Virus record (IMG/VR): IMGVR_UViG_2529292735_000017
DNA from: a virus
Taxonomy: Duplodnaviria > Heunggongvirae > Uroviricota > Caudoviricetes
Length of the DNA: 46,878 bases
Strand: one strand, 5' to 3'
In this document: positions 10,365 through 29,781 of the stretch, piece after piece
How positions within the stretch are numbered: the stretch's first letter is position 1
How the letters are laid out: each line of letters begins with the position of its first letter
Translations under genes and position numbers: made by a program
Notes under the pieces: generated by a model
What the model saw: only the letters and a program-made list of their open reading frames with translations
Databases searched by the model: none
What the model was told of the DNA's origin: nothing

Positions 10365-10487
10365 ACCAATTCCTTTTCAATGAATAATTGGCCTTTAGGA
10401 GTGATTCCCTTTGTCTTTAATTCAGTTCTAACTAGTTCTTTAATCCAATAGCCTAAGCTCATCATGCAGTTGGATCATAAGACAACG

Positions 10488-10514
10488 CCCTATAGTGCTC
10501 GTGATACTATAGGG
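10488..10514. repeat. Perfect 9-bp inverted repeat (CCCTATAGT-n9-ACTATAGGG)
   Basis: Read directly; about 125 bp upstream of the 449-aa ORF start; no following T-run, so more likely an operator or RNA structure than a terminator. Confidence 0.6.
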
Positions 10515-11107: not shown

Positions 11108-11263
11108 ATGAAGCAGCAAAAGGCGATGTTAATCGCCCTGATCGTCATCTGTTTAACCGTCATAGTGACGGCACTGGTAACGAGGAAAGACCTCTGCGAG
11201 GTACGAATCCGAACCGGGCAGACGGAGGTCGCTGTCTTCACAGCTTACGAACCTGAGGAGTAA
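11108..11263 (+). CDS. hokD: Hok/Gef-family type I toxin (HokD/RelF-like)
   Basis: 51 aa MKQQKAMLIALIVICLTVIVTALVTRKDLCEVRIRTGQTEVAVFTAYEPEE: a single transmembrane helix plus conserved Cys/Tyr tail typical of Hok; AGGAGAAG RBS. Confidence 0.85.
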   Translation: MKQQKAMLIALIVICLTVIVTALVTRKDLCEVRIRTGQTEVAVFTAYEPEE

Positions 11264-11332
11264 GAGACCCGGCGAGGGAGAAATCCCTCGCCACCTCTGA
11301 TGTGGCAGGCATCCTCAACGCACCCGCACTTA

Positions 11333-11352
11333 ACCCGCTTCGGCGGGTTTTT
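11333..11352 (+). terminator. Intrinsic terminator downstream of hok
   Basis: ACCCGC-TTCG-GCGGGT stem-loop followed by a T-run; preceded by a second hairpin GGCGAGGG…CCCTCGCC. Confidence 0.5.
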
Positions 11353-11479
11353 GTTTTTATTTTCAACGCGTTTGAAGTTCTGGACGGTGCCGGAATAGAA
11401 TCAAAAATACTTAAGTAGCGCGCAGGGATAAGAGGGATGGTCCCTTAAAGGGGAGAGCTAATTATCCGGAAGGATTCTG

Positions 11480-11731
11480 ATGATGAACATCGAAGAACTG
11501 CGTAAAATTTTTTGTGAAGATGGCCTCTATGCGGTGTGCGTTGAAAATGGAAATCTTGTTAGTCATTACCGCATTATGTGTTTGCGAAAGAATGGGGCTG
11601 CGTTAATTAATTTTGTGGATGGTCGAGTGACAGACGGATTTATCTTGCGCGAAGGTGAGTTTGTCACTTCATTACAGGCACTGAAAGAGATCGGAATAAA
11701 AGCAGGCTTTTCAGCTTTTGCAGAAGAATAA
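11480..11731 (+). CDS. rem: Rem-like hypothetical protein
   Basis: 83-aa ORF; size and position next to hok and ydfU match Qin rem; identity from memory. Confidence 0.55.
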   Translation: MMNIEELRKIFCEDGLYAVCVENGNLVSHYRIMCLRKNGAALINFVDGRVTDGFILREGEFVTSLQALKEIGIKAGFSAFAEE

Positions 11732-11797
11732 ACTCATCTACAATCTTGCGCGGGGCTGAACTCCCGCTGAGTAACACCGTGCCACCGGAGAAAACCG

Positions 11798-12076
11798 ATG
11801 GCACGCAACGTAAAATATTACAATTCTGATAATTCGCCCGTTCTTGCCTGCACGCACGAGCGGTATTCTCACGCATTCAAGTCTGAATGGTTCCAACACC
11901 CTCCATGCACTGAAGAGCAGGCTGAATGGATAATTCAGTGTTACCGCAGGCGCGGATACGAGGTTAAGAAAGCCCTTAGTCTCGACTACCGTCACTGGAT
12001 AATCTCAGTCAGATTGCCTTACTCCGAACGCCCACCACGTGCGTCCCGCACTTTCCAGCAACGGATCTGGAGGTAA
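11798..12076 (+). CDS. Hypothetical small protein
   Basis: 92-aa ORF ending 2 nt before the ydfU GTG start; weak RBS; coding status uncertain. Confidence 0.35.
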   Translation: MARNVKYYNSDNSPVLACTHERYSHAFKSEWFQHPPCTEEQAEWIIQCYRRRGYEVKKALSLDYRHWIISVRLPYSERPPRASRTFQQRIWR

Positions 12077-12077
12077 C

Positions 12078-13127
12078 GTGCGGGTATTACTTAGACCTGT
12101 TCTGGTGCCTGAGCTTGGGCTGGTGGTCCTTAAGCCGGGCCGTGAATCCATACAGATATTTCATAATCCTCGAGTGCTGGTGGAACCGGAACCAAAAAGC
12201 ATGCGTAATCTGCCATCCGGAGTCGTTCCTGCCGTTGGCCAGCCGCTGGCGGAAGACAAAACATTGCTGCCGTTTTTTAGTAACGAACGGGTGATTCGTG
12301 CTGCTGGCGGCGTTGGCGCATTGTCTGACTGGCTATTACGTCATGTTACATCCTGCCAGTGGCCTAATGGAGATTACCATCACACTGAAACAGTCATTCA
12401 CCGTTATGGTACCGGCGCAATGGTGTTGTGTTGGCACTGCGACAACCAACTGCGTGACCAGACATCGGAATCACTGGAGCTGCTTGCTCAACAAAATCTG
12501 ACAGCATGGGTGATTGACGTCATCCGTCACGCAATAAGCGGTACGCAGGAGCGGGAATTATCTTTGGCTGAATTATCCTGGTGGGCGGTCTGCAATCAGG
12601 TGGTGGATGCACTACCTGAGGCTGTATCGCGTCGTTCGCTGGGATTACCAGCGGAAAAAATCTGCTCGGTGTACCGCGAAAGCGACATCGTACCGGGAGA
12701 GCAGACCGCCACCAGCATACTGAAACAGCGCACAAAAAATCTTGCGCCGCTGCCTCACGCCCACCAGCAACAGAACCCACCACAGGAAAAGACGGTGGTC
12801 AGCATTGCCGTTGATCCTGAGTCTCCGGAATCTTTCATGAAACGACCTAAACGTCGCCGCTGGGTTAACGAGAAATACAAACGCTGGGTGAAGACACAGC
12901 CGTGTGCGTGTTGTGGTAAGCCAGCCGACGATCCCCATCACCTGATTGGTCATGGTCAGGGCGGAATGGGGACAAAATCTCACGATATTTTCACGCTACC
13001 GCTGTGTCGGGAGCATCACAACGAGCTTCATGCGGATCCTCTGGCGTTCGAAGAAAAGCATGGTTCTCAGGTTGATTTAATTTTTCGTTTTCTTGATCAC
13101 GCCTTTGCAACTGGCGTGCTTGGGTAA
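12078..13127 (+). CDS. ydfU: YdfU-like DUF968-family protein with C-terminal Cys/His (HNH-like) motif
   Basis: GTG start at 12078 with perfect GGAGG RBS gives 349 aa; C-terminal …CACCGK…HHLIGHGQGG…CREHHNELH. Confidence 0.8.
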   Translation: MRVLLRPVLVPELGLVVLKPGRESIQIFHNPRVLVEPEPKSMRNLPSGVVPAVGQPLAEDKTLLPFFSNERVIRAAGGVGALSDWLLRHVTSCQWPNGDYHHTETVIHRYGTGAMVLCWHCDNQLRDQTSESLELLAQQNLTAWVIDVIRHAISGTQERELSLAELSWWAVCNQVVDALPEAVSRRSLGLPAEKICSVYRESDIVPGEQTATSILKQRTKNLAPLPHAHQQQNPPQEKTVVSIAVDPESPESFMKRPKRRRWVNEKYKRWVKTQPCACCGKPADDPHHLIGHGQGGMGTKSHDIFTLPLCREHHNELHADPLAFEEKHGSQVDLIFRFLDHAFATGVLG

Positions 13128-13139
13128 AAGAGGTGACTG

Positions 13140-13496
13140 ATGCTCATAGATTTGGTTTTACCTTACCCGCCGACGGTGAACACTTACTGGCGACGCCGTG
13201 GCAGCACATATTTTATCTCGGAGGAGGGAAAGCGTTATCGCCGGGCTGTGGCGCTTATTGTTCGCCAGCAGCGGCTGAAATTAAGCCTGTCCGGAAGGCT
13301 GGCGATAAAGGTGATTGCAGAGCCACCGGATAAGCGTCGTCGCGACCTGGACAATATCCTGAAAGCACCGCTGGATGCGCTGACGCATGCGGGAGTGTTA
13401 ATGGACGATGAGCAGTTTGATGAAATCAATATCGTTCGTGGTCAGCCAGTATCTGGCGGACGTCTGGGGGTGAAGATTTACCCCATAATGCATTAA
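13140..13496 (+). CDS. rusA: Holliday junction resolvase RusA
   Basis: 118 aa; …RRRDLDNILKAPLDALTHAGVLMDDEQ… resembles the RusA catalytic core. Confidence 0.85.
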   Translation: MLIDLVLPYPPTVNTYWRRRGSTYFISEEGKRYRRAVALIVRQQRLKLSLSGRLAIKVIAEPPDKRRRDLDNILKAPLDALTHAGVLMDDEQFDEINIVRGQPVSGGRLGVKIYPIMH

Positions 13497-13510
13497 GAGC
13501 AGGTCAAAAA

Positions 13511-14332
13511 ATGAAACTGGAAGATTTACCGAAATACTACTCCCCAAAATCCCCTGGCCTGACCGATGCATCGGCCTCAACGTCAAAAGATGCGCTGAGT
13601 ATCACTGATGTGATGGCCGCGCAGGGCATGACACAGAATCGGGCTGAGATGGTTTTTTCTGCGTTCCTGGGGAAAATGGGCATCAGTATGAATGACAGGG
13701 CGCGGGCAACAGAATTACTGGCAGATTATGCACTCAGTCGGTGCGATCGTGTGGCGGCGTTGAGAAAACTTCCGGCAGAAATAAAACCGGTAGTGATGCG
13801 CATTATGGCTTCGTACGCTTTTGAGGATTATGCCCGCAGCGCAGCGAGTAAAAAGCAGTGCCCTTGTTGCTATGGGGAAAAATTTATTGAAAGCATAGTT
13901 TTTACAAACAAGGTCCAGTATCCGGATGGTAAGCCGCCGGTATGGGCAAAGTGTACGAAAGGTGTGTATCCGTCTTACTGGGAAGAATGGAAAAAAGTCA
14001 GGGAGGTGGTAAAAGTTGCCTGTCCGGAGTGTGGCGGAAAGGGTGAGGTTTCCACCGCCTGTAAGGATTGCCGTGGGCGTGGTGTCGCCATTCATCGTGA
14101 AGAGTCGGTAAAACGTGGTATGCCTGTTGTCAGAGACTGCCAGCGTTGTGGTGGTCGTGGCTATGAAAGACTACCATCAACGGAGGCATTTAATGCTATA
14201 TGCGAGGTGACAAACCAGATAACACGCGCGTCATGGGAAAAAACAGTTAAGAAATTCTATGATGCGCTGGTGACCCGGTTTGATATTGAAGAAGCATGGG
14301 CTGAGCGGCAGTTAAAAAAGGTAACTAGGTAA
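13511..14332 (+). CDS. Late-gene antitermination protein Q
   Basis: 273 aa with CxxC…CxxC zinc-binding clusters; immediately upstream of a pR'-like promoter and terminator. Confidence 0.8.
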   Translation: MKLEDLPKYYSPKSPGLTDASASTSKDALSITDVMAAQGMTQNRAEMVFSAFLGKMGISMNDRARATELLADYALSRCDRVAALRKLPAEIKPVVMRIMASYAFEDYARSAASKKQCPCCYGEKFIESIVFTNKVQYPDGKPPVWAKCTKGVYPSYWEEWKKVREVVKVACPECGGKGEVSTACKDCRGRGVAIHREESVKRGMPVVRDCQRCGGRGYERLPSTEAFNAICEVTNQITRASWEKTVKKFYDALVTRFDIEEAWAERQLKKVTR

Positions 14333-14337
14333 CAAGG

Positions 14338-14365
14338 TTGATTTTTCCGGAATCTGTGGTAAATT
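14338..14365 (+). promoter_or_regulatory. Putative late promoter pR'
   Basis: TTGATT (-35, 14338-14343), 16-nt spacer, TGgTAAATT extended -10 (14357-14365), directly after the Q stop. Confidence 0.5.
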
Positions 14366-14414
14366 CGTCATAATGATGGGCTTTTTATGCCTGACGTTAG
14401 AAGAGTTTCTACAA

Positions 14415-14436
14415 CCCGCCGCCGAGCGGGTTTTTT
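14415..14436 (+). terminator. Putative tR' intrinsic terminator
   Basis: CCCGC-cgccga-GCGGG hairpin followed by TTTTTT, about 50 nt downstream of the promoter. Confidence 0.5.
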
Positions 14437-14476
14437 ATTGCGGAATTAATTACGGACCGTTATTATTCTGCTCCCG

Positions 14477-14552
14477 GCCCTTTAGCTCAGTGGTGAGAGC
14501 GAGCGACTCATAATCGCCAGGTCGCTGGTTCAAATCCAGCAAGGGCCACCAT
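14477..14552 (+). tRNA. tRNA, anticodon CAT (ileX/ileZ-like tRNA-Ile2; Met not excluded by anticodon alone)
   Basis: 76 nt with 7-bp acceptor stem GGCCCTT/AAGGGCC, anticodon loop cTCATAa, GGTTCAAATCC T-arm, 3' CCA; closely resembles remembered E. coli ileX. Confidence 0.85.
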
Positions 14553-14651
14553 CACAAACCGCCATTAGCTTATCAGGAAGAGCAGACGACACGATAACAG
14601 GGTTGTTGGTGCGGGGGCGGGTCCCCGATGGCGGTCCATTATCGGTATTCA

Positions 14652-14728
14652 GCGTTGTTAGCTCAGCCGGACAGAGCAATTGCCTTCTAAGCAATCGGTC
14701 ACTGGTTCGAATCCAGTACAGCGCGCCA
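14652..14728 (+). tRNA. tRNA-Arg (anticodon TCT)
   Basis: 77 nt; acceptor stem GCGTTGT/ACAGCGC, anticodon loop CTTCTAA, GGTTCGAATCC T-arm, 3' CCA. Confidence 0.85.
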
Positions 14729-14865
14729 TATTCATTCTTCCAGATTCCTTCCGGCAGAGCCTTATACTGGAATATACCTGGCTCAGGATATTGTTGAAAA
14801 CATAATATGTTTGTCAAAAATAAAAGTTCTGTTAAGTATTGATTGAGTGTTTGTTATACGGTCTA

Positions 14866-15192
14866 ATGGTTTTTTCAGCATTAAATATTTATCATTCATA
14901 TGGTGTGGGTAGAGTGAATATTGATGAGGCGTCGGGGTGTTTCATCCTTAGGCAGCGCATTGATATAGTCAATGCAGCACGAGCAAAGGCCTTCAGCCGT
15001 TTGACAGTTTTGTTCTGTGCTCCTGATCGTCTTTCGGGAAGAGACGTTATTATTCTGAATAGTGATGCTATACAGAGGGTTTGCGATGAGTTCATGGTTG
15101 CTAATTCAGAATTATTTGCTCTTGTTCAGGAGTACAACAGAATAGCCAGGACCTGTGGTATGGATGAACTTCGGATTACTCATCTGGGGTAG
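14866..15192 (+). CDS. Hypothetical protein (late-region cargo)
   Basis: ORF with first ATG at 14866 and no convincing RBS; between the tRNAs and the lipoprotein genes. Confidence 0.35.
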   Translation: MVFSALNIYHSYGVGRVNIDEASGCFILRQRIDIVNAARAKAFSRLTVLFCAPDRLSGRDVIILNSDAIQRVCDEFMVANSELFALVQEYNRIARTCGMDELRITHLG

Positions 15193-15725
15193 ATACATAT
15201 CTGGATTATCACCTGTTACGGTAAAAAGTGATTGCTTACTGTTTTTGTGAATGGCATTGCAGCAGCCGGATAATGTCAGTGCTGGCTGACGGTGTGCTGG
15301 TGGCGGGTGTGGTGGTTGTTGCTTTCCCGTTGCTGAAAAAGAAAACGCCAGACTGTTAGCCGGGTATCAGTTAGCGGGAGAAATTTTTAAATACTTCACA
15401 ATTCAGGCGGTTGACTGTTCTCTGGTTTGCGGGGAGTTTGTTAAAAGAAACTGGCATGGTGAATCCCCCTGTGCGGAGGGGCAATCAGCGAGTAGGTATA
15501 TGGGATAATCGCGGATTCAGGTGCTGGTACTGAATTCACCGGGAGGCACCCGGCACCATGCACTTCAATAGATTCTCTCCACATTATGGATATTCTTTCA
15601 GAATATCCCACGCAGACTTTGTGTAAATGTTAACAAATGTGCGTTTTATTTGATCTGATTCGCTGTTTGAGCGTCCAAAACAACGGTATATATAATCCTT
15701 TACTATATGACATATGTGAGGAAAA

Positions 15726-16154
15726 ATGGGTTTTCGTAGCGCATCAATTCTTACGTTGATTATTAGTGGGATTATTATCGGGTGCACTGATGCTGTATCG
15801 ACAAATTATCATGACCGTACATCATATTACTCCGATAAAGCAATAGAGACACAGTATGTGAGTTCATCTGAACGTACTTCTGATGTTAGTGAGGATATCC
15901 GTCTGTATGCCCATCAAATCAAGAGCGCCATCGAAAAACAGTTCGGGGATGCGAGTAAGTATTCAGGAAAAGAGTGTACACTGAGAATGCATATGGCCCC
16001 GAATGGCCTTCTACTGGAGGTTAAAAGAGAAAGTGGAGACCTCGATTTATGTCGTGAAGCGATGAATGCGATAAAGAATGCTGATATACCTGCCCCCCCT
16101 TCGCCGGAAGTATATAAAGTATTTCAAAATGGGGTGCTGGATTTTAAACCCTGA
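15726..16154 (+). CDS. Lipoprotein with TolA C-terminal (domain III)-like domain
   Basis: Signal peptide with lipobox IIGC; C-terminal …YAHQIKSAIEKQFGDASKYSGKECTLRMHMAPNGLLLEVKRESGDLDLCREAMNAIKNADIPAPPSPEVYKVFQNGVLDFKP closely parallels the remembered E. coli TolA C-terminus. Confidence 0.8.
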   Translation: MGFRSASILTLIISGIIIGCTDAVSTNYHDRTSYYSDKAIETQYVSSSERTSDVSEDIRLYAHQIKSAIEKQFGDASKYSGKECTLRMHMAPNGLLLEVKRESGDLDLCREAMNAIKNADIPAPPSPEVYKVFQNGVLDFKP

Positions 16155-16304
16155 TATTTATTGTTTTGTAATAAACGGTTTCGGCTTAGGTTTGTTCTGA
16201 CACAACTACGGCACTGAGCTAAATTTAGCGGATAGTCAGCTCTGAGCCAGTGGCGGACGTAACAACTACTATTGCTGAGATTTTAATGGATTGAGGAGCA
16301 AGAA

Positions 16305-16700
16305 GTGGGATTAAAGAAAATCGTTATGTTGACTTTTTGGGTCGGTTTTGTTGCGGGATGCACACCTTTACACCCTTCAGATTGCCACAAAACTACTGCT
16401 ACAGGTAGTTGCAGTTCAGGACGCTGGGATGATCAGGATGAATGGGGGGCGCAAGCGCGGGGAATCAGAGCTGCAATTAATGCCAAACTTGATGAGCCGC
16501 ATAACTGGAAAGGGAAAAAATGCAGGTTGCATATGGAATTCTCTCAGGATGGCACGGCGTTAAAAATATCTACCAGTAACGGTGATAAAGCCTATTGCGA
16601 AGCGATAAAGTCCGCAGCTCATAAAGCCAAATTTCCGGCCTTCAACAATCCGGAAGTCTACAGAGATTTTCAGAAATCTGGCTTTGACATGCGAGGTTAG
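16305..16700 (+). CDS. Paralogous lipoprotein with TolA C-terminal-like domain
   Basis: GTG start with GAGGAG RBS; lipobox VAGC; shares the C…C…PEVY…FQ…G(F/L)D(F/M) pattern with the upstream paralogue. Confidence 0.75.
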   Translation: MGLKKIVMLTFWVGFVAGCTPLHPSDCHKTTATGSCSSGRWDDQDEWGAQARGIRAAINAKLDEPHNWKGKKCRLHMEFSQDGTALKISTSNGDKAYCEAIKSAAHKAKFPAFNNPEVYRDFQKSGFDMRG

Positions 16701-17007
16701 CTCTTCAATTACTATATCTCATTCATAGCAAACTGACAGATTTGATGATGTTCTATATACGAAACCTGTGATGTCAAGTCTGAGCTAATACAAATAAACA
16801 TAATATCAGAGAAATACATTTTATTAGCTCGCTACGGCGAGCTTTTTATATTGCATCGTCTCCAGCATATATATCAATTAAGGCTCTGATTGATGTGTCT
16901 GGAAGCCTACACATAATAGACTGGCCCCCTGAATCTCCAGACAACCAATATCACTTAAATAAGTGATAGTCTTAATACTAGTTTTTAGACTAGTCATTGG
17001 AGAGCAG

Positions 17008-17337
17008 ATGATTGATGTCTTAGGACCGGAGAAACGCAGACGGCGTACTACACAGGAAAAGATCGCTATTGTTCAGCAGAGTTTTGAACCGGGAATGACG
17101 GTCTCCCTTGTTGCCCGGCAACACGGTGTGGCAGCCAGCCAGTTATTTCTCTGGCGCAAGCAATACCAGGAGGGAAGTCTTACTGCTGTGGCCGCAGGAG
17201 AGCAGGTCGTTCCTGCCTCTGAACTTGCTGCTGCCATGAAGCAGATTAAGAACTCCAGCGCCTGCTCGGCAAAAAAACGATGGAAAATGAACTCCTTAAA
17301 GAAGCCGTTGAATACGGGCGTGCAAAAAAGTGGATAG
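17008..17337 (+). CDS. insC: IS2 transposase OrfA (InsC), C-terminus apparently frame-altered
   Basis: [41 protein letters not shown]… matches InsC up to …AAMKQIK, then diverges from my recollection, consistent with a 1-nt deletion. Confidence 0.7.
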
Positions 17338-18235
17338 CGCACGCGCCCTTATTGCCCGGGGATGGGGAGTAAGCTTAGTCAGCCGTTGTCTCCGGGTGTC
17401 GCGTGCGCAGTTGCACGTAATTCTCAGACGAACCGATGACTGGAAAGATGGTCGCCGCAGCCGTCACTCAGATGATACGGATGTGCTTCTCCGTATACAC
17501 CATGTTATCGGAGAGCTGCCCACGTATGGTTATCGTCGGGTATGGGCGCTGCTTCGCAGACAGGCCGAACTTGATGGTATGCCTGCGATCAATGCCAAAC
17601 GTGTTTACCGGATCATGCGCCAGAATGCGCTGTTGCTTGAGCGAAAAACCGCTGTACCGCCATCGAAACGGGCACATACTGGCAAAGTGGCCGTGAAAGA
17701 AAGCAATCAACGATGGTGCTCTGACGGGTTCGAGTTCCGCTGTGATAACGGAGAAAAACTGCGAGTCACGTTCGCGCTGGACTGCTGTGACCGTGAGGCA
17801 CTGCACTGGGCAGTCACTACGGGCGGCTTCGACAGTGAAACAGTACAGGACGTAATGCTGGGAGCGGTGGAACGCCGCTTCGGCAACGAGCTTCCGGCGT
17901 CTCCAGTAGAGTGGCTGACGGATAATGGTTCATGCTACCGGGCTAATGAAACACGGCAGTTTGCCCGGATGTTGGGGCTTGAACCGAAGAACACGGCGGT
18001 GCGGAGTCCGGAGAGTAACGGCATAGCAGAGAGCTTCGTGAAAACGATAAAGCGTGACTACATCAGTATCATGCCTAAACCAGACGGGTTAACGGCAGCA
18101 AAGAACCTTGCAGAGGCGTTCGAGCATTATAACGAATGGCATCCGCATAGTGCACTGGGTTATCGCTCGCCACGGGAATATCTGCGGCAGCAGGCCAGTA
18201 ATGGGTTAAGTGATAACAGGTGTCTGGAAATATAG
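17330..18235 (+). CDS. insD: IS2 transposase OrfB (InsD; DDE catalytic domain)
   Basis: 301-aa [26 protein letters not shown]… typical IS3-family OrfB. Confidence 0.85.
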
Positions 18236-18286
18236 GGGCAAATCCACATAATAACTATGCCATCCGTTCCGTGCGGAGGTGAGGCT

Positions 18287-18502
18287 ATGAAATCCATGGA
18301 CAAAATTTCAACAGGCATTGCCTACGGCACCTCCGCAGGCAGTGCTGGCTACTGGTTTTTACAGCTGCTCGATAAAGTCACGCCCTCACAGTGGGCAGCA
18401 ATAGGTGTGCTGGGTAGCCTGGTATTTGGCCTGCTGACGTACCTGACAAATCTTTATTTCAAGATTAAAGAAGACAGGCGTAAGGCTGCGAGAGGAGAGT
18501 AA
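18287..18502 (+). CDS. S: Class II holin (phage 21 S-like pinholin) with dual start
   Basis: [71 protein letters not shown]; Met1-Lys-Ser-Met4 dual-start motif; two transmembrane segments. Confidence 0.85.
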
Positions 18503-18570
18503 TCCAATGACTCAATACTATGAACTGGTTGTGAAAGGAGGTAAGCGTCAACGGAGCACCGTATTGACGC

Positions 18571-18930
18571 TTATTTATTGGTGAGTACTACGTTCCATGG
18601 CAGGAGTTCGTCAACACGGTTGGAGGGCCATTCCGGCAGTACGCTCAGAATATGGCGCAGATACGCTTCCGGATCGATACCGTTCAGTCGGCAGGTGCCG
18701 ATCAGCCCGTACAGCAGTGCTCCACGCTCGCCGCCGTGATCGCTACCGAAGAACACGTAATTTTTCTTTCCGAGACAGACTGCACGAAGCGCTCTTTCCG
18801 CTGTGTTATTGTCCACCTCCGCCAGACCGTCATCACTGTAATAACAGAGGGCGTCCCACTGATTCAGTACATAGCTGAACGCTTCGCCCAGTCTGGATTT
18901 TTTCGACAGCGTGCCATTCTTCTCCACCAT
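18571..18930 (-). pseudogene. IS66 TnpC C-terminal fragment
   Basis: …DNNTAERALRAVCLGKKNYVFFGSDHGGERGALLYGLIGTCRLNGIDPEAYLRHIL… conserved IS66 transposase C-terminus; N-terminal three quarters absent. Confidence 0.75.
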
Positions 18931-18947
18931 CCATTCATGCAGCGACG

Positions 18948-19193
18948 TCAGTAACGCTTTGCTTCGCTGCTGCCTGGCTGCAAGACGCTCTGACTCTGGT
19001 AATCTCCGTATTTCATTCTCGATGGCGTACAGTTCACTTCTCCCCGTCGGCCACGGAAGATAAACAGGTGACCGGAGAAGGGGTTATCATCCAGCACATG
19101 CTGTATCTGCTCCCCCAGACCGTTGAAGGATTTACGCATATCAGTAACGCCGGCAACGAGCCAGATACGGGTACCTGATGGGAGTGAAATCAT
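18948..19193 (-). pseudogene. IS66 orf2 (TnpB) truncated
   Basis: MISLPSGTRIWLVAGVTDMRKSFNGLGEQIQHVLDDNPFSGHLFIFRGRRG then unrelated sequence, marking the deletion junction. Confidence 0.7.
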
Positions 19194-19627
19194 CGTCCCC
19201 TCCCGGTCAGCTCACGGATCAACACCGTGAGCAGCTCTGGTGAAGGATTTTCCAGCATCATTTTACCGTAATGGAATTCCACATGGCAGGAAGCTGCACA
19301 AGCAACTGATAATGCCTCCGGAGCAGGAGCATCTGTAGCACAGCGCGGGGGGTCGATAAGTTCCACTGGAACCAGAGTCGGAGAGGCCGGAAAAGATTGT
19401 GATACTGTAGGGCCTACAATAGTTGGAGGCATTCTACGAGAAATACGTCCTTCTCTTTGCCAGAGGCGTAGCCATTTAAAAATCAGGTTGTTATCAACGC
19501 CATGTTCCCGGGCCAGTTGTGCAACATTGGCATTTGGTTTCGAAGCCAGTTCAACCATATGAAGTTTAAATTCATTAGAAAATATCCGGCGGGTTCCGGA
19601 GCGCCAGTCTGTAGGTTTATCCATCAA
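19190..19627 (-). CDS. IS66-family orf1 (TnpA accessory protein)
   Basis: 145-aa ORF with HTH-like N-terminus, first gene of the IS66 operon. Confidence 0.75.
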   Translation of the reverse strand: MMDKPTDWRSGTRRIFSNEFKLHMVELASKPNANVAQLAREHGVDNNLIFKWLRLWQREGRISRRMPPTIVGPTVSQSFPASPTLVPVELIDPPRCATDAPAPEALSVACAASCHVEFHYGKMMLENPSPELLTVLIRELTGRGR

Positions 19628-19991
19628 TAGAACTCCGTCTAATTTAGAAGGAGCTCTAATTTAGTCTGCAAGGAGCAGGTGTTACAGACGGCATTGGCTT
19701 TACGCTTACGAAAGGAGTCCGTAATTTTGAGAATAAAGTTACGGTAACTGTAGCCTTACAGGACAAAGAACGCTTTGACGGTGAAATTTTTGGCCTGGAT
19801 GTCGCCATGGACCGTGTTGAAGGAGCTGCGCTGGAGTTTTATGAGGCAGCAGCCAGAATGAGCGTCCGGCAAGTCTTCCTGGAAGTAGCAGAAAAATTGT
19901 CAGAAAAAGTTGAGTCTTATCTGCAGCATCAGTACTCCTTTAAGATTGAAAATCCTGCCAATAAGCACGAGCGTCCTCATCATAAATATCT

Positions 19992-21019
<1,028 letters not shown>

Positions 21020-21382
21020 ATTAATATTAAATCGGATTATTTTTAGCGCTGAATGTGAAATTTAAATAAAAAGGACTCTTCCATGAGTCAAAATCCTTGA
21101 AATCTTAAGGGTAAGATAAAAGGTCATTAGACAGAATGACACGTTTTATTAATAAATAAAGCTATTGTTTCATTCGTGTGTTTTTCTTTACAAAAGTAAT
21201 CCTTGCTATGGTTGGTTAATCATGCGTTAATGGTGTTCTGGTTTGTTACAAAATTATCTGAAGCAGTCATTGTTATAATTTTATTATTTGTACCTCTTGA
21301 GATTTCCTTGTTGGTTTTTCTCTCTGATATTTTTTTTCGGACCATTCTGCCCAAGGGCTAACTTCTTCAAAAGGTAATAATG

Positions 21383-21595
21383 ATGTCTAACAAAATGACT
21401 GGTTTAGTGAAATGGTTTAACCCTGAAAAAGGTTTTGGTTTCATCACGCCGAAAGATGGTAGCAAAGATGTGTTTGTGCATTTCTCAGCTATTCAGAGCA
21501 ACGATTTCAAAACGTTAACTGAGAATCAGGAAGTCGAATTTGGTATTGAGAACGGACCTAAAGGCCCTGCAGCTGTTCATGTAGTGGCACTTTGA
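21383..21595 (+). CDS. Cold-shock protein (CspA family)
   Basis: 70 aa [38 protein letters not shown]… with RNP1/RNP2 motifs; long AT-rich 5' leader. Confidence 0.85.
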
Positions 21596-21800
21596 GGTAG
21601 AAAATATTACAAACCATATTCACTTTAGATGCCCGTGTTGCCATGGTTCTCAGTATAGAACATCATCTTTTGATGTTTCTGACAGAAATCCTTTCGGGGC
21701 AAAATGTATCTTTTGTAAATCAATGATGATTACATTTGATAATATTTCACAATACTTAAATGTTAGCCATCTGTCGTTAGATTTAAGAAAGTGAAAATGA

Positions 21801-21823
21801 AGGCTCCTTCGGGAGCTTTTTTG
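21801..21823 (+). terminator. Putative intrinsic terminator
   Basis: GGCTCC-TTCG-GGAGC stem-loop followed by TTTTTT. Confidence 0.4.
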
Positions 21824-21940
21824 CTTAGTGTCTAGTCGATGGATACTCACATATTACGGTAACATTATGAAAAAATAATAGTTTTTTTTAACTCTGAACC
21901 AGCAATGGTAGTGCCAGTGATGACCGGAGTTAACACCATC

Positions 21941-22096
21941 ATGCGTGAATATCCAAATGGCGAAACAACACACCTCACTGTAATGGCTGCAGGGTTTCCA
22001 TCTCTGACCGGAGATCATAAAGTCATTTATGTAGCAGCGGATCGACATGTAACTTCAGAAGAAATTCTGGAAGCAGCAATGAGACTCTTGAATTGA
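21941..22096 (+). CDS. ynfN: YnfN-like small protein
   Basis: 51 aa from internal Met (MREYPNGETTHLTVMAAGFPSLTGDHKVIYVAADRH…); position between csp and gns as in Qin; from memory. Confidence 0.5.
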   Translation: MREYPNGETTHLTVMAAGFPSLTGDHKVIYVAADRHVTSEEILEAAMRLLN

Positions 22097-22265
22097 TTTG
22101 ATTCTAATGCATTGATAATAAATGATAATCATCTTTATCTGTTTGTGTGAAATTTAGACCGTCGTATGTTGATTATTGCGATGTTTCATCTTATCTTTTA
22201 TACGTTTGCTCCATATAATTGACACTACTGTGTACCAGGACAGTCATAACAGACTAAAAGAGGAA

Positions 22266-22442
22266 ATGATGAACATTGAAGAGTTAAAAACAAAAACAGA
22301 AGCAGATATTTCTGAATATATAACAAAAAAAATCATTGAGCTTAAGAAAAAGACCGGGAAAGAAGTTACCAGTATCCAGTTTACTGCACGGGAAAAAATG
22401 ACTGGTCTTGAAAGCTATGATATCAAGATTGATTTAATCTAG
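22266..22442 (+). CDS. gnsB: GnsA/GnsB-family small protein
   Basis: MMNIEELKTKTEADISEYITKKIIELKKKTGKEVTSIQFTAREKMTGLESYDIKIDLI resembles remembered GnsB. Confidence 0.7.
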   Translation: MMNIEELKTKTEADISEYITKKIIELKKKTGKEVTSIQFTAREKMTGLESYDIKIDLI

Positions 22443-22737
22443 CATGTTTATAGTATTAGCATCAATTTCTCATCAGATGCTATTCAACAATACAAATTAC
22501 CCATAAACCTCGTTTTTACGGGGTTTTGTTATATTTAAACATTACTGAATAGATATAAATCTCGATTGTCGATGGTATTGGTTGTGTGACAATACCTAGT
22601 CTTTCCGGTATGCCTGAAGAGAATACAAACGACAGATTATGTAAGGGAAACGCGCTGAAACTTTCACTCTTTCATGCTGAGTGATTTGACGTTATATTTT
22701 TAGCCGCAAGTGAAGAGCAAACGAATGGAGCGACAAA

Positions 22738-22944
22738 ATGCATAAAGATCAATACACTGATGCCCCCTCCCAGGAGCAGGTTCGTGTAAAAACTATGCTT
22801 AATAGCACCATTTCGATGGGTTACCCGGATGTTGTAATTGCATGTATAGAACATCAAGTATCTCTGGAAGCATTCAGGGCAATTGAGGCCGCGTTAGTAA
22901 AGCACGATAAGAATACGAAGGATTATTCCCTGGTGGTTGACTGA
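22738..22944 (+). CDS. Hypothetical small protein
   Basis: 68-aa ORF in AT-rich cargo region; no motif recognised. Confidence 0.4.
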
Positions 22945-23299
22945 TCACCATAACTGCTAACCATTCTGACCATTTCACAAGTGACAGAGTCAATATCGTA
23001 TTCTGTCACTGTAAGGCTAATACAGTACTGCAATTCAACTACAGCAATGCCTCGTATTTAGGTGAATTTACAATATCGTCCAGTTCGGATGCCGGCTGCA
23101 TTTCTGAAGATAAGGCATTTCGGTTCGCGTATTTTCCCCTCATGCTCGTCAGTCCTGCGCGTAGTAAGAAACAGGACACTCACACTAATTTGTGTGGGCA
23201 TGCTGTGATGTCCTTCTGAATTATCCCCATGCCATTATGTAACGCTCTGTTTCAGATGCTCGTCACGGTTGTCAGGCTGTCGGGTCCTCCCAGTGGGGG

Positions 23300-23340
23300 T
23301 CCCTGCCACGGGGCGGGAGCGTCGCGGAAAAAGGCTAGTT
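23300..23340. other. Putative cos site (cosN-like)
   Basis: ACGGGGCGGGAGCGTCGCGGA resembles lambda cosN (ACGGGGCGGCGACCTCGCGGG); 186 bp upstream of the small terminase start, as in lambda; followed by AT-rich region with palindrome CTGTAAT-n-ATTACAG. Confidence 0.45.
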
Positions 23341-23496
23341 TTTGAAATTTCATCCGTCATCACCACTACTGTAATAGATTGATATTACAGTATTTTTATT
23401 TTTGTGGTGTCGATTTTGATTGTTTTTTGTTCATCACTAACACCGTTTGCCTAAAGTCGTTCGCAAGATGCATGTTTAAAACATTCTGGAGCGGGT

Positions 23497-23991
23497 ATGG
23501 ATCGAGAGTTAAAAAATCTGACGCTGAATATCAGTCAATTGGCGGCACTGTCAGGTGTACATCGCCAGACTGCTGCGGCAAGGCTGCAAAATCTACCCGT
23601 TGCAGGGGGGCATGAAAGCAACCTCAAGCTTTATCGGGTGGTTGATATTGTGTCGGCATTTCTGGCATTACCACCGCCGGTTGCAGAAGGCGAAATGGAC
23701 GCACATGAGCGCAAAGCCTGGTATCAGTCTGAACGTGAGCGTCTTAAGTTCGAACAGGAAACGGCACAACTCATTCCGGCCAGTGATGTCAGACGGGAGT
23801 TTGCCATCTGGGCAAAAGCGGTCGTGCAGGTGCTGGAGACATTACCGGATATTCTTGAACGTGACTGCGGTCTGCAGCCTGCCGCTGTGAGCCGTGTTCA
23901 GTCCATTATTGATGATCTGCGCGATCAGGTAGCCCTGCGGGTGACTGAAGCAGGTGCGGATGATGAGGAGGAATTACAGCAGGAGGAGTAA
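23497..23991 (+). CDS. Terminase small subunit (Nu1-like)
   Basis: 164 aa with N-terminal winged-HTH-like segment (…LNISQLAALSGVHRQTAAARLQ…) and acidic C-terminus; directly upstream of large terminase. Confidence 0.75.
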   Translation: MDRELKNLTLNISQLAALSGVHRQTAAARLQNLPVAGGHESNLKLYRVVDIVSAFLALPPPVAEGEMDAHERKAWYQSERERLKFEQETAQLIPASDVRREFAIWAKAVVQVLETLPDILERDCGLQPAAVSRVQSIIDDLRDQVALRVTEAGADDEEELQQEE

Positions 23992-26093
23992 TGCTGAATC
24001 AGGAAACCGCAAAGGCAGCACGAACCGATTCAGGTTATATCCTTCGCGCACCGAGACGAATGCGGGTTGCTGATGCCGTTGCTCAGTATATGCGGGTGCC
24101 CATGGGGGCAGGGAACTCAGTCCCATGGGATCCGCTGGTGGCACCGTATGTTATTGAGCCTATGAACTGCCTGGCCTCGCGTGAATACGACGCAGTGATA
24201 TTTGTTGGCCCGGCACGAACCGGCAAGACTATCGGCCTGATTGACGGCTGGGTGATTTACAACGTGATTTGCGATCCTGCTGATATGCTGATCATTCAGA
24301 TGACGGAGGAAAAAGCCCGCGAACACTCCAAAAAACGACTCGCCAGAACGTTTCGCGTCAGCCCGGAAGTGGTCAGTCGCCTGAGTCCGAACAAAAATGA
24401 CAACAACGTTTATGACAGAACATTCCTTGCTGGCAACTACCTGAAAATCGGCTGGCCGTCAGTCAATATCATGTCTTCATCAGATTATAAATGCGTGGCG
24501 CTGACGGATTATGACCGTTTTCCGGAAGATATTGATGGTGAGGGGGATGCCTTCTCTCTTGCCTCAAAACGTACCACCACATTTATGTCCAGTGGTATGA
24601 CGCTGGTGGAGAGTTCCCCCGGCAGGGATGTGAAGGATGTGAAATGGCGACGGACTTCACCGCATGAGGCTCCACCAACCACGGGGATCCTGTCGCTCTA
24701 TAACCGTGGCGATCGCCGTCGCTGGTACTGGCCCTGTCCACACTGTGGTGAGTATTTTCAGCCCTGCGGCGATGTGGTTGCTGGTTTCCGTGATATTGCC
24801 GATCCTGTGCTGGCAAGTGAGGCGGCTTATATTCAGTGTCCTTCCTGTTCAGGACGGATTTTGCCTGAACAAAAACGCGAGCTGAACGGACGTGGGGTCT
24901 GGTTACGGGATGGTGAATCCATCAATGCAGATGGCAGTCGTTATGGTGATCCCCGGCGTTCACGTATTGCGTCATTCTGGATGGAGGGTCCGGCAGCTGC
25001 TTATCAGACACTCTCGCAACTCGTTTACAAACTGCTTACTGCAGAACAGGAATACGAGACAACCGGAAGTGAAGAGACACTCAAGACGGTTATCAATACC
25101 GACTGGGGATTACCTTATCTTCCCCGCGCCAGCATGGAGCAACGAAAAAGTGAATTGCTTGAGCAGCGGGCAGAGCCAGTTCCTTCCCGCAGTGTGCCGG
25201 ATGGCGTTAATTTCCTTGTGGCGACAGTGGATGTGCAGGCGGGACGTCATCGCCGTTTTGTGGTTCAGGTAACGGGCTATGGCAGCCGTGGCGAACGCTG
25301 GATTATTGATCGTTACAACATCACGCAGTCATTGCGCGGTGACAGCGACGGGGAGAGCCAGCGAATTGATCCGGCCAGCTATCCGGAAGACTGGGATGTC
25401 CTGCTGACGGATGTTTTTCATAAAAGCTGGCCGCTGGCCTCCGACCCTTCTCAACAAATGCGACTGATGGCAATGGCGGTGGACTCCGGCGGTGAAGACG
25501 GGGTCACTGATAATGCCTATAAATTCTGGCGTCGTTGCCGTCGTGATGGCCTTGGTAAACGTATTTACCTGTTTAAGGGCGACAGCATCCGGCGAGCAAA
25601 ACTGATCACCCGTACATTCCCTGATAACACCGGACGAACGGGCCGACGGGCGCAGGCCGCAGGTGATGTGCCGCTCTGGCTTCTTCAGACGGATGCCCTG
25701 AAAGACCGGGTGAATAACGCGTTATGGCGTGACTCGCTAGGTCCCGGCTATGTGCATTTCCCTGACTGGCTGGGGAGCTGGTTTTACGACGAACTGACGT
25801 ATGAAGAGCGGAGCAGTGACGGGAAATGGAGTAAGCCGGGTCGCGGTGCCAACGAAGCTTTTGACCTGATGGTGTATGCCGAGGCTCTGGTCATTCTGCA
25901 TGGATACGAAAAGATCCGCTGGCCGGATGCACCGGAGTGGGCGAGCCGGGAAACCTGGCTGGAGTGTGTCCCGGACAGTACCGAACCGTCACCCTCACCG
26001 GAACCGGTACCCACGCCTGTTAAAAAACAAAAACGGAAGAAAACAGTAACTGACGATGTTAACCCCTGGCTGACTTCCGGAGGATGGTTATGA
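23991..26093 (+). CDS. Terminase large subunit (gpA-like)
   Basis: 700 aa; Walker A-like VGPARTGKT; cysteine cluster CPHCGEYF…CPSCSG; typical size and position. Confidence 0.9.
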   Translation: MLNQETAKAARTDSGYILRAPRRMRVADAVAQYMRVPMGAGNSVPWDPLVAPYVIEPMNCLASREYDAVIFVGPARTGKTIGLIDGWVIYNVICDPADMLIIQMTEEKAREHSKKRLARTFRVSPEVVSRLSPNKNDNNVYDRTFLAGNYLKIGWPSVNIMSSSDYKCVALTDYDRFPEDIDGEGDAFSLASKRTTTFMSSGMTLVESSPGRDVKDVKWRRTSPHEAPPTTGILSLYNRGDRRRWYWPCPHCGEYFQPCGDVVAGFRDIADPVLASEAAYIQCPSCSGRILPEQKRELNGRGVWLRDGESINADGSRYGDPRRSRIASFWMEGPAAAYQTLSQLVYKLLTAEQEYETTGSEETLKTVINTDWGLPYLPRASMEQRKSELLEQRAEPVPSRSVPDGVNFLVATVDVQAGRHRRFVVQVTGYGSRGERWIIDRYNITQSLRGDSDGESQRIDPASYPEDWDVLLTDVFHKSWPLASDPSQQMRLMAMAVDSGGEDGVTDNAYKFWRRCRRDGLGKRIYLFKGDSIRRAKLITRTFPDNTGRTGRRAQAAGDVPLWLLQTDALKDRVNNALWRDSLGPGYVHFPDWLGSWFYDELTYEERSSDGKWSKPGRGANEAFDLMVYAEALVILHGYEKIRWPDAPEWASRETWLECVPDSTEPSPSPEPVPTPVKKQKRKKTVTDDVNPWLTSGGWL

Positions 26094-26302
26094 ATCAGAA
26101 TGATATTGAAGCCATGATTCAGCGTTATACGGAAGCTGAAATGGCGGTGCTGGACGGAAAATCCGTCACTTTTAATGGTCAGCAGATGACCATGGAAAAC
26201 TTATCTGAGATCCGGCAGGGGCGGCAGGAGTGGGAGCGCCGCCTTGCGGCTCTGATTACACGACGACGGGGGCATCCCGGGTACCGGCTGGCGAGGTTCT
26301 GA
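26090..26302 (+). CDS. Head-tail joining protein (gpW-like)
   Basis: About 70 aa; ATGA overlap with terminase stop; position between terminase and portal. Confidence 0.55.
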   Translation: MNQNDIEAMIQRYTEAEMAVLDGKSVTFNGQQMTMENLSEIRQGRQEWERRLAALITRRRGHPGYRLARF

Positions 26303-27810
26303 TGGCAATTCTTGATGATGTGATTGGCGTTTTTTCACCAGGATGGAAAGCGGCAAGGCTGCGTTCCCGTGCGGTGATCCAGGCTTATGAGGCCGTAAAA
26401 ACGACGCGGACACACAAAGCCCGACGGGAGAACCGAACTGCCGACCAGTTAAGCCAGTACGGGGCCGTGTCGTTACGTGAGCAGGCTCGTTACCTTGATA
26501 ACAACCACGATCTGGTCATTGGTGTATTTGACAAGCTGGAAGAACGGGTGGTGGGGAAAAACGGGATTATTGTCGAGCCACATCCGGTATTACGCAATGG
26601 GGCCATTGCCCGTGATCTGGCAGCGGAGATACGTACCCGATGGAGTGAATGGTCTGTCAGTCCGGAGGTCACCGGGCAGTTTACCCGTCCGATGCTGGAA
26701 CGTCTGATGCTGCGTACCTGGCTGCGCGATGGTGAGGTGTTTGCCCAGATGGTTTCCGGGCGCATAAACAGCCTGACGCCTTCTGCCGGTGTTCATTTCT
26801 GGCTGGAGGCGCTCGAGCCGGACTTTATTCCCATGACCAGTGATGAGAGCAACAGGCTGAATCAGGGCGTGTTTGTTGATGACTGGGGGCGTCCCGAAAA
26901 ATATCTGGTGTATAAAAGCCGTCCCGTATCCGGGCGGCAGATGGAAACCAAAGAAGTGGATGCAGAGCGAATGCTGCATCTTAAATTTGTTCGCCGTCTG
27001 CACCAGATGCGCGGGACGTCTTTGTTGTCCGGTGTGCTGATCCGCCTCAGTGCTCTGAAAGAGTATGAAGATTCTGAGCTGACTGCAGCAAGGATCGCCG
27101 CTGCTCTGGGGATGTACATCCGGAAAGGCGACGGACAGAGCTATGAAACGGATGGTAATGACAGCAAGGAGAATGAACGCGAGCTTACCATTCAGCCAGG
27201 CATTATTTACGACGATCTGAAACCCGGCGAAGAAATCGGAATGGTGAAGTCGGATCGCCCCAATCCTAACCTTGAAACTTTTCGTAATGGTCAGTTGCGT
27301 GCCGTGGCTGCGGGCAGTCGTCTGAGTTTTTCCAGTACAGCGCGCAACTATAACGGCACTTACAGCGCCCAGCGTCAGGAGCTGGTTGAATCTACTGATG
27401 GCTACCTGATCCTGCAGGACTGGTTTATTGGTGCCGTCACCCGCCCGATGTACCGTGCCTGGCTGAAACAGGCTGTGGTATCCGGTGTTATCAGGCTACC
27501 CCGCGATCTGGACCGATCTTCACTGTATACCGCGGTGTATTCCGGACCGGTGATGCCGTGGATTGACCCTGTTAAGGAGGCTGAGGCCTGGAAAATTCAG
27601 ATTCGTGGTGGAGCGGCGACAGAATCAGACTGGGTACGTGCAGGTGGTCGTAATCCAGATGATGTCAAACGTCGGCGCAAGGCCGAAATTGATGAAAACC
27701 GCAAGCTGGATCTGGTATTTGATACCGATCCGGCCAGTGATAAAGGAGGCAGCAGTGCCGCAACGAAACGACAGGAGCCGCAGCACACCGACGACCAGTC
27801 CGAAGAATAA
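26302..27810 (+). CDS. Portal protein (gpB-like)
   Basis: About 500 aa from Met at 26302; position and size; acidic C-terminus. Confidence 0.85.
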   Translation: MAILDDVIGVFSPGWKAARLRSRAVIQAYEAVKTTRTHKARRENRTADQLSQYGAVSLREQARYLDNNHDLVIGVFDKLEERVVGKNGIIVEPHPVLRNGAIARDLAAEIRTRWSEWSVSPEVTGQFTRPMLERLMLRTWLRDGEVFAQMVSGRINSLTPSAGVHFWLEALEPDFIPMTSDESNRLNQGVFVDDWGRPEKYLVYKSRPVSGRQMETKEVDAERMLHLKFVRRLHQMRGTSLLSGVLIRLSALKEYEDSELTAARIAAALGMYIRKGDGQSYETDGNDSKENERELTIQPGIIYDDLKPGEEIGMVKSDRPNPNLETFRNGQLRAVAAGSRLSFSSTARNYNGTYSAQRQELVESTDGYLILQDWFIGAVTRPMYRAWLKQAVVSGVIRLPRDLDRSSLYTAVYSGPVMPWIDPVKEAEAWKIQIRGGAATESDWVRAGGRNPDDVKRRRKAEIDENRKLDLVFDTDPASDKGGSSAATKRQEPQHTDDQSEE

Positions 27811-27823
27811 TTCTTGGTTCAGG

Positions 27824-29781
27824 ATGCAGGCAGGTCACCAGAGTGACGCGGATATTTATATTTATGACGAGATTGGTTTCTGGGGTGTTACGGCGAAGCA
27901 GTTTATCAGTGATCTGAATGCACTGGGCGATATCACCCACATTAATCTCCATATTAATTCACCGGGTGGCGATGTCTTTGAAGGCATCGCCATTTTTAAT
28001 GCACTGAAAACACATGGTGCGTCCATTACCGTTTATGTCGACGGTGTGGCGGCGTCAATGGCGTCGGTCATTGCGATGGTGGGAAACCCGGTCATTATGC
28101 CGGAAAACTCCTTCATGATGATTCATAAACCATTTGGCTTTACGGGCGGTGATGCGGAGGACATGCGCACCTATGCCGACCTGCTCGATAAAGTTGAGGC
28201 GGTTCTGTTACCCGCTTATGCACAGAAAACCGGGAAACCACCGATGAAATTGCTGCCATGCTGGCGGATGAGACCTGGATGTCCGGTGCCGAATGTCTGG
28301 CACAGGGATTTGCTGATCAGGTGACACCAGCCGTTAAGGCAATGGCATGTATTCAGTCAAAACGTACAGAGGAATTTAAAAAGATGCCGGAATCCATTCG
28401 AAATATGATTACTCCGCCACGCAACAGTGCTCCACGCGTACAGGATGATGGACCTGCAGCCTCCCGGACGCCAGTGCAGGCAGCAGCACCCGTGGTGGAT
28501 GAAAACAGCATCCGTGCGCAGGTCCTGGCAGAGCAAAAAGCGCGTGTAAACGGTATTAATGATCTGTTTGCCATGTTTGGCGGGCGTTATCAGTCGTTGC
28601 AGGCTCAGTGTCTTGCCGATCCTGAATGTTCGCTGGAGCAGGCCCGCGAAAAGCTGTTGAACGAGATGGGGCGCGAGTCCACGCCATCCAATAAAAATAC
28701 CCCGGCTCATATTTATGCCGGTAACGGTAATTTTGTGGGGGACGGGATCCGCCAGGCGCTGATGGCGCGCGCCGGGTTTGAAAAAACTGAACGTGATAAT
28801 GTCTACAACGGGATGACCCTGCGTGAATATGCCCGTATGTCACTGACTGAACGTGGTATTGGTGTTTCCAGTTATAACCCGATGCAGATGGTCGGTGCGG
28901 CGTTCACACACAGTACGTCTGACTTCGGTAATATTCTGCTGGATGTTGCGAACAAAGCCATTCTGCAGGGCTGGGAAGATGCCCCTGAAACCTATGAACA
29001 GTGGACGCGGAAAGGTCAGTTGTCTGATTTTAAAATTGCCCATCGTGTGGGTATGGGGGGCTTCAGTGCTCTGCGTCAGGTGCGTGAAGGGGCAGAATAT
29101 AAATACGTCACCACCGGAGATAAACAGGCCACTATTGCACTGGCGACCTATGGCGAGCTGTTCAGTATCACCCGTCAGGCCATTATCAATGATGATCTGA
29201 ATATGCTGACCGATGTCCCGATGAAGCTGGGCCGTGCGGCGAAATCCACTATTGCCGATCTGGTTTATGCCATTCTGACGTCTAACCCGAAAATCTCCAC
29301 AGATAATGTAAGTCTGTTCGATAAAGCGAAACATGCAAACGTACTGGAGAGCGCGGCAATGGACGTGGCATCGCTGGATAAAGCCCGCCAGTTGATGCGC
29401 GTTCAGAAAGAGGGTGAGCGTCATCTGAATATTCGTCCTGCGTTCGTACTGGTACCGACGGCGATGGAGTCTGTTGCTAACCAGGTCATTCGCTCCTCAA
29501 GTGTCAAGGGGGCTGACATTAACGCCGGTATTATTAACCCGGTGAAAGATTTTGCGACCGTTATTGCAGAGCCTCGTCTTGATGATAACAGCCAGACCAC
29601 CTTCTACCTGGCTGCGTCCAAAGGCTCCGATACGATTGAAGTGGCTTATCTCAACGGTGTGGATACGCCATATATTGATCAGATGGAGGGCTTCAGTGTG
29701 GATGGCGTGACAACGAAAGTGCGTATTGACGCTGGTGTTGCGCCAGTTGATCACCGCGGCCTGGTGAAATGTACGGCGTAA
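27824..29781 (+). CDS. Prohead protease (ClpP/S49-like)-scaffold-major capsid fusion; requires a frame change near 28232-28240
   Basis: ORF 27824-28324 has a ClpP-like core (…INSPGGDVFEG…SMASVIAMVGNPVIMPENSFMMIHKP…); ORF in the -1 frame (to 29781) continues the protease C-terminus, then capsid-like sequence; junction at A-run GGGAAACC. Confidence 0.7.

Follow-up and report, generated by a model that had tools for sequence, protein, structure and literature searches.

The prophage and its lysis genes

The window (the whole stretch of DNA analysed, 46,878 nucleotides) holds, from integrase to tail fibre, a lambdoid prophage that is 99.7-99.95% identical to a prophage of Escherichia coli KE48. 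It is a complete element of 44 kb and is located between rspB and ydfJ, the chromosomal site of Qin. Positions 7500-30500 are collinear with the KE48 prophage at 99.95-100% identity, two extra blocks excepted; both blocks are insertion sequences (an IS2 copy and a remnant of an IS66-family element), and these two insertions are the only structural differences between the two prophages. Rfam matches typical of Qin-type prophages are present (DicF, sok, STnc100, the cspA thermoregulator upstream of cspI, and IS009; matches at 4756-4807 on the minus strand, 10939-11113, 15425-15615, 21225-21641 and 45930-46128), as are two tRNA genes (14476-14551 and 14652-14728) downstream of the Q antiterminator gene. 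The tRNA with a CAT anticodon is tRNA-Ile in the KE48 annotation versus tRNA-Met according to ARAGORN.

The lysis genes are encoded on the plus strand: an essD-type holin of the phage 21 S family (18287-18502, 71 aa; PF04971, E = 5.5e-36; holin in PHROGs; essD in KE48), a lysozyme of the rrrQ type (19992-20525, 177 aa; Pfam Phage_lysozyme; endolysin in PHROGs), and the Rz-like spanin RzpQ (20522-21019; Pfam DUF2514; Rz-like spanin in PHROGs). Between holin and lysozyme lies ydfR, divided into a 5' fragment of 11 codons plus one nucleotide (18507-18540, 100% identical to ydfR of KE48) and a 3' fragment comprising codons 12-103 and the stop codon (19718-19995), of which the first in-frame start is the ATG at 19807. 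As it stands, the split gene encodes 11 native residues and 14 more read from the insertion sequence, with a stop after 25 codons. No Rfam match to a structured RNA falls inside 18507-19995.

An earlier note on this DNA had proposed that an insertion splits a ydfR-like gene located between holin and endolysin, and that removing the element with one repeat copy restores a frame of 103 aa. In silico excision of 18541-19717 indeed joins 18507-18540 in frame with 19718-19995, giving a 103-aa ORF whose ATG (18507) is separated from the holin stop codon (18500-18502) by four bases (18503-18506) and whose TGA (19993-19995) overlaps the endolysin ATG (19992). The restored protein matches PF07041 (DUF1327/YdfR) over the entire profile (positions 1-93 of 93, E = 8.8e-51, 170.5 bits against a curated cut-off of 25 bits) and has 100% amino acid identity to the product of a gene of phage mEp460_ev081. 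This, together with nucleotide identity to annotated ydfR genes, bears out the ydfR-like identity; YdfR homologues were identified in 100 phage records, with Stx-converting phages accounting for many of these. The proposed location also agrees with what is found, namely an S21-type holin and an rrrQ lysozyme on either side of the gene in a prophage that occupies the Qin site. The gene order essD-ydfR-rrrQ-rzpQ recurs in KE48, in many other genomes, and in phages mEp460_ev081, Tritos and PhiR42_1.

Comparison with the ydfR gene of Qin in E. coli K-12 (DUF1327, 103 aa) indicates the same restored length, the same full-length match to PF07041, and the same position between an essD/essQ-type holin and rrrQ, again in a prophage located between rspB and ydfJ. 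Unlike its counterpart in the Qin prophage of E. coli K-12, which is degraded, the gene in the window is split after codon 11 and belongs to a complete 44-kb prophage. The lysis cassette of phage 21 (pinholin and SAR endolysin; S21-R21-Rz/Rz1) is similar in that the holin of the window belongs to the Pfam family 'Bacteriophage P21 holin S', and its lysozyme has an N-terminal hydrophobic segment rich in Gly and Ala and is followed by an Rz-like spanin; the window differs in having an additional gene, ydfR, between holin and endolysin, with the endolysin start overlapping the ydfR stop. Phage 21 is not known to have a ydfR gene. YdfR of K-12 is reported to interact with RNase E, binding its catalytic half, and is possibly an RNA-binding protein (PMC13232886); apart from this report, a search for functional literature on YdfR found nothing, the PDB holds no relative of solved structure, and the family is entered in PHROGs under 'unknown function'.

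An ISEc47-like element inserted in ydfR

The two parts of ydfR are separated by an ISEc47-like element of the IS66 family (18541-19709, with IS genes on the minus strand) that is internally deleted, with 1169 bp left. Its termini are of the GTAAGCGT type, with ends GTAAGCGT...ACGCTTAC as in ISEc47 and ISEc23: GTAAGCGTCAA starts at 18541 and its complement TTTACGCTTAC finishes at 19709, matching, as read from the sequence, at 8 of 8 terminal positions and at 10 of 11 overall. The element thus has the imperfect terminal inverted repeats beginning 5'-GTAAGCG by which IS66 members are recognised. It also has their 8-bp direct target duplication (GAAAGGAG; left copy at 18533-18540, right copy at 19710-19717), and 8-bp duplications were likewise found at seven related IS66 copies.

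The KE48 prophage provides the empty site. Window positions 18245-18540 align to positions 9411-9706 of the KE48 locus (L003), and window positions 19710-30500 align to 9699-20491; because the two alignment blocks overlap at 9699-9706, KE48 has a single copy of GAAAGGAG where the window has two, which upholds the 8-bp target duplication described in the earlier note. The excised sequence of 524 bp (element and one repeat removed in silico) is 100% identical to that of at least 15 complete E. coli genomes, in which it is annotated as essD, ydfR and rrrQ, and 3110 of 5426 complete E. coli genomes contain at least 80% of it. Because of the empty-site match in KE48, 18541-19709 is a true insertion, and not a chance arrangement. 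The element and one repeat lengthen the distance from holin to endolysin by 1177 bp, consistent with the approximately 1.2 kb of antisense IS sequence that had been proposed to separate them, the IS genes being on the minus strand.

A full-length copy of 2541 bp (L002:3501-6041), with an 8-bp duplication of its own (ATATTACG), served for comparison. It encodes TnpA (144 aa), TnpB (116 aa) and TnpC (537 aa), and its ends are those of the remnant. The 407 bp at the tnpC end of the remnant are 100% identical to many copies, the transposase of which is named 'IS66-like element ISEc47 family transposase' in RefSeq; the name ISEc47 rests on this RefSeq/PGAP label of TnpC, with 99.8-100% identity to the copies so labelled serving as a proxy for near-identity to the ISfinder reference, and the tnpC-side end is common to the remnant and ISEc23. 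The attribution to the IS66 family made in the earlier note therefore stands on Pfam and NCBIfam matches (TnpA, TnpB_IS66, and DDE_Tnp_IS66 with IS66_C), on the GTAAGCG ends, on the 8-bp duplication and on the nucleotide identity of 99.8-100%. Neither of the two contrary outcomes named in the earlier note was obtained: the element does match the IS66 family, and the restored ORF does have homologues. No further IS66 copy is present inside the window.

Internal deletion of the element

The remnant consists of nucleotides 1-498 of the 2541-bp copy (one mismatch, 99.8% identity) joined to nucleotides 1871-2541 (remnant nucleotides 499-1169, 100% identical to the full-length copy), and lacks the intervening 1372 bp. 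The internal deletion that the earlier note had suspected is thereby located at 19038|19039, where comparison with the full-length copy revealed no microhomology between the breakpoints.

All three IS66 genes are recognisable on the minus strand in the order tnpA-tnpB-tnpC, all of them complete in the parent copy. The tnpA gene (19190-19624, 144 aa; within an ORF of 145 aa), for a helix-turn-helix accessory protein, is intact and 100% identical to that of the full-length copy (Pfam HTH_Tnp_1, E = 2e-10; NCBIfam IS66 TnpA matches under curated cut-offs). Of tnpB there remains a 5' fragment of 51 codons and two nucleotides (19039-19193, profile positions 2-45 of 101 in Pfam TnpB_IS66), which stops at codon 52 and continues out of frame into tnpC sequence to form a fusion ORF of 81 aa (18948-19193) with residues 9-52 matching IS66 Orf2/TnpB (E = 2.6e-13). 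Of tnpC there remain the final 155 of 537 codons and the stop codon (18571-19038; Pfam DDE_Tnp_IS66 and IS66_C), spanning only positions 218-283 of 284 in the DDE_Tnp_IS66 profile, such that most of the DDE domain is gone; a minus-strand ORF of 119 aa covers the end part of the IS66 DDE transposase domain and the IS66 C-terminal element. The deletion has taken away the end of tnpB together with codons 1-382 of tnpC. The intact orf1, truncated orf2 and tail of tnpC listed in the earlier note were all recovered; its description of orf2 as fused to tnpC needs the refinement that the fusion is out of frame.

Judged by its gene content, the element at 18541-19709 is a member of the IS66 family by descent, yet non-autonomous: with 155 of 537 codons of TnpC left, the complete DDE transposase of an autonomous element is absent, and the remnant can neither make its own transposase nor move by itself. 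It resembles ISEc47 and ISEc23 in its ends, its 8-bp duplication, its gene order and its 99.8-100% nucleotide identity to the 2541-bp copy, and differs from them in having 1169 bp instead of 2541, in the loss of 1372 internal bp, and in having neither a functional TnpB nor a functional TnpC.

Since both ends are kept, the remnant could in principle be mobilised in trans by a full copy elsewhere. The element may then have been deleted before its arrival in ydfR, as a non-autonomous derivative of 1169 bp moved by a full ISEc47 or ISEc23, and the intactness of both ends and of the 8-bp duplication is in keeping with this order of events; furthermore, IS66 copies are abundant in E. coli (at a median of 3 places per genome), and there are further remnants with internal deletions in which tnpA is retained, such as one on the pAA plasmid of E. 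coli O104:H4. A derivative that propagates should leave more copies, however, and the exact deletion junction 19038|19039 was found nowhere else: it has 0 exact matches in the one-genome-per-species set and in metagenome contigs, it is shared by 0 of 21 high-coverage matches to the remnant in 5426 complete E. coli genomes, and no record of the 81-aa fusion protein was found. Among those 21 matches, three (H2-H4) are pairs of adjacent IS66 copies, the pieces of which were joined in the search, and two (H1 and H6) carry other deletions. Arrival in deleted form is accordingly considered unlikely, and deletion in place, after insertion, is the simpler reading. The insertion itself is equally restricted, its left junction having 0 exact matches in the one-genome-per-species set, metagenome contigs and viral contigs, and no covering match among phage records.

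The deletion could also be an artefact produced by the collapse of a full-length element during assembly. Insertion sequences are difficult to resolve in short-read assemblies, and the nearby IS2 is one base off in a run of A, possibly through a sequencing error. Repeat collapse usually breaks contigs, however, and does not as a rule make a clean internal junction without microhomology, and the flanks of the element are perfectly collinear with the empty site, all of which makes an artefact highly improbable.

The neighbouring IS2 copy

A second insertion sequence is located in the same lysis region, 40 nt upstream of the start of the essD holin. This IS2 copy (16917-18246, plus strand, 1330 bp), delimited by comparison with the empty site in KE48, is flanked by a 5-bp target duplication, CATAA, and its OrfB matches NCBIfam 'IS2 transposase TnpB' (E = 3e-213). 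Its length (about 1331 bp is typical), its 5-bp duplication, and its orfA and orfB with programmed frameshift are those of IS2. Compared with an intact copy of 1331 bp, a single A is absent near 17247, which shifts the frame of orfA; this 1-nt deletion indicates either a defective copy or a sequencing error in a homopolymer. With orfA of IS2 frameshifted and the IS66 remnant devoid of a transposase, both insertion sequences of the lysis region are probably immobile.

The CATAA target of IS2 falls within a -10-like hexamer (TTGATG-16-CATAAT, 16890-16917), and the end of IS2 (TGGAAA) together with the duplicated CATAAT forms a promoter-like pair facing essD (18225-18252). Promoter-like matches around IS2 are no more numerous than in shuffled sequence.

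Predicted consequences for lysis

Predicted duplex energies with the 3' end of 16S rRNA are favourable for essD (-10.8 kcal/mol), ydfR (-9.5 kcal/mol) and rzpQ (-8.4 kcal/mol), versus +1.1 kcal/mol for rrrQ, which has no Shine-Dalgarno sequence and whose ATG overlaps the stop codon of ydfR (ATGA). The only Shine-Dalgarno sequence between the holin start and the endolysin start is that of ydfR. Because rrrQ lacks such a sequence and overlaps ydfR in this manner, translation of the endolysin in Qin-type cassettes is probably coupled to that of ydfR, needing ribosomes that have just terminated there. The ATG at 19807, the sole in-frame start left in the 3' fragment of ydfR, has a weak Shine-Dalgarno sequence (-3.4 kcal/mol). 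YdfR is thus predicted to have been lost from this prophage, and translation of the RrrQ endolysin is probably impaired by the insertion, although some translation of rrrQ could start without coupling. Loss of YdfR may itself leave lysis unaffected, since no function is assigned to the family in PHROGs.

The tnpC-proximal end of the insertion sequence contains a hairpin (18539-18582, plus strand; -19.5 kcal/mol, z = -4.7) followed by UUUAUU, which from these features appears to be terminator-like and would face transcription from the holin. A scan of 16800-20200 with promoter and terminator consensus sequences gave counts at the expectation for shuffled sequence. In late transcription of lambdoid phages, Q-modified RNA polymerase normally passes through terminators, and for this reason the transcription of rrrQ may be unaffected.

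The reading considered very probable is that an ISEc47-like element of the IS66 family transposed into codon 12 of ydfR, duplicating its 8-bp target GAAAGGAG, and that it now lacks 1372 internal bp, from the end part of tnpB through codon 382 of tnpC. Nothing in the analysis speaks against this structure. After the insertion YdfR would no longer be made, and translation of rrrQ, which lacks its own ribosome-binding site and apparently needs ribosomes that finish ydfR, would be expected to fall; late transcripts entering the insertion sequence would meet the terminator-like hairpin, which the Q-modified polymerase may or may not pass. The IS66 remnant and the frameshifted IS2 would together represent an early stage in the decay of the lysis module of a prophage that is otherwise intact. 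An IS remnant in a prophage gene is a known insertion sequence in a known gene by a known kind of event, and is ordinary prophage decay.

The prophage, structurally complete, may therefore be lysis-defective or lysis-delayed. If rrrQ is coupled to ydfR as proposed, disrupting ydfR in any way would readily yield a prophage that responds to induction but lyses its host poorly. The appropriate annotation of ydfR in the window is that of a pseudogene with a non-autonomous ISEc47-like remnant inserted in it. The insertion of ISEc8 in stx2A of the O157 strain 9000, the precise removal of which restored function (PMC6776261), is comparable in that an IS66-family element lies within a late-operon gene of a lambdoid prophage; that case involves a toxin gene, which the insertion silences, and a full-length element, in contrast to ydfR and a deletion remnant in the window.

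Recurrent IS66 insertions in ydfR

A query of 121 nt spanning the left junction also matched other E. coli genomes in which an IS66-family element occupies this location. Extraction of ends and duplications identified six independent insertions (the window included) within nucleotides 17-66 of ydfR homologues, counted with the A of ATG as 1 (equivalent to 18523-18572 in the window). Five are ISEc23 and one is the ISEc47 remnant, and together they represent five positions, three alleles and three prophage types. Nearest to the start codon is an ISEc23 copy at nucleotides 17-24 (L007, target AACTGATT); the remnant of the window at nucleotides 27-34 (target GAAAGGAG) is matched in position by an ISEc23 copy in a divergent allele (L006, target TAAAGGGA, also nucleotides 27-34). 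Two more ISEc23 copies share one 8-bp target at nucleotides 30-37 (AGGGATCC; L004 and L012), and the last is at nucleotides 59-66 (L005, target CGGTAACT). Five of the six, including the window, are in the same orientation, with the tnpC end towards the holin, and L012 is in the opposite one; this bias is not significant (two-sided p about 0.2). Junction queries in both orientations and on both sides detected no other IS66 insertion within about 560 nt either side. If insertions were uniform over approximately 1.1 kb, the chance of five further events within about 40 nt of the first would be in the order of 1e-6 (an estimate).

Similarity between target and element does not account for the clustering, for the four IS ends tested match the empty site no better than they match shuffled sequences (p = 0.33-0.85). 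Nor does a strong target consensus, since 60 distinct left flanks of IS66 elements show no more than AT-richness of the duplication (36% GC) and a weak preference for C at -10. A general preference of IS66 for ydfR in phage DNA was also rejected: none of 49 distinct flanks from 63 viral contigs lies in the 5' end of ydfR. One of the 49 (L069, an IMG/VR contig) lies inside an rrrQ-type lysozyme gene of another prophage, and on this evidence IS66 insertion in lysis genes besides ydfR does occur. A literature search on the target choice of IS66 or on IS insertions in ydfR yielded nothing relevant.

A rival explanation is that the insertion was kept for its benefit to the host, as an adaptive domestication that blocks or delays prophage-induced lysis by separating the endolysin from the holin, rather than as neutral decay. 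Two independent insertion sequences in or beside one lysis cassette of a prophage that otherwise matches its intact relative, an rrrQ gene without its own ribosome-binding site, a terminator-like hairpin facing the late transcript, and the shared orientation of five of the six insertions in ydfR are all consistent with such a benefit, but the non-significance of that orientation bias weakens the last point. Disruption of holin or endolysin would serve equally well, yet no such insertions were found in the approximately 560 nt on either side, and the insertion in the window was confined to a single strain in all collections searched. Retention by host benefit is rather doubtful on balance, and if selection against lysis acted alone, the sparing of holin and endolysin would be left unexplained.

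The repeated IS66 insertions in the same 50 nt suggest a target preference in a family of which target selection is uncharacterised. It is tentatively proposed, as a possibility somewhat short of an even chance, that IS66 elements (ISEc23 and ISEc47) transpose preferentially into the first 66 nt of ydfR-family genes, a genuine regional hot spot that would be attributable to a local feature of DNA or chromatin and not to a sequence motif. If so, lambdoid phages would offer IS66 a favoured insertion site in a gene that they can do without; the elements could then travel with the phages and could uncouple holin from endolysin.

ISEc23 is also found inserted in the tnpA-side end of other IS66 copies (L008 and L009, both at approximately 2100-2160, and L011), and this nesting is the reason for the false 'full-length' matches to the remnant. 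The target duplications of the nested copies are TAATTTAG and AATTTAGT, and the tnpA-side end may be a second recurrent target.
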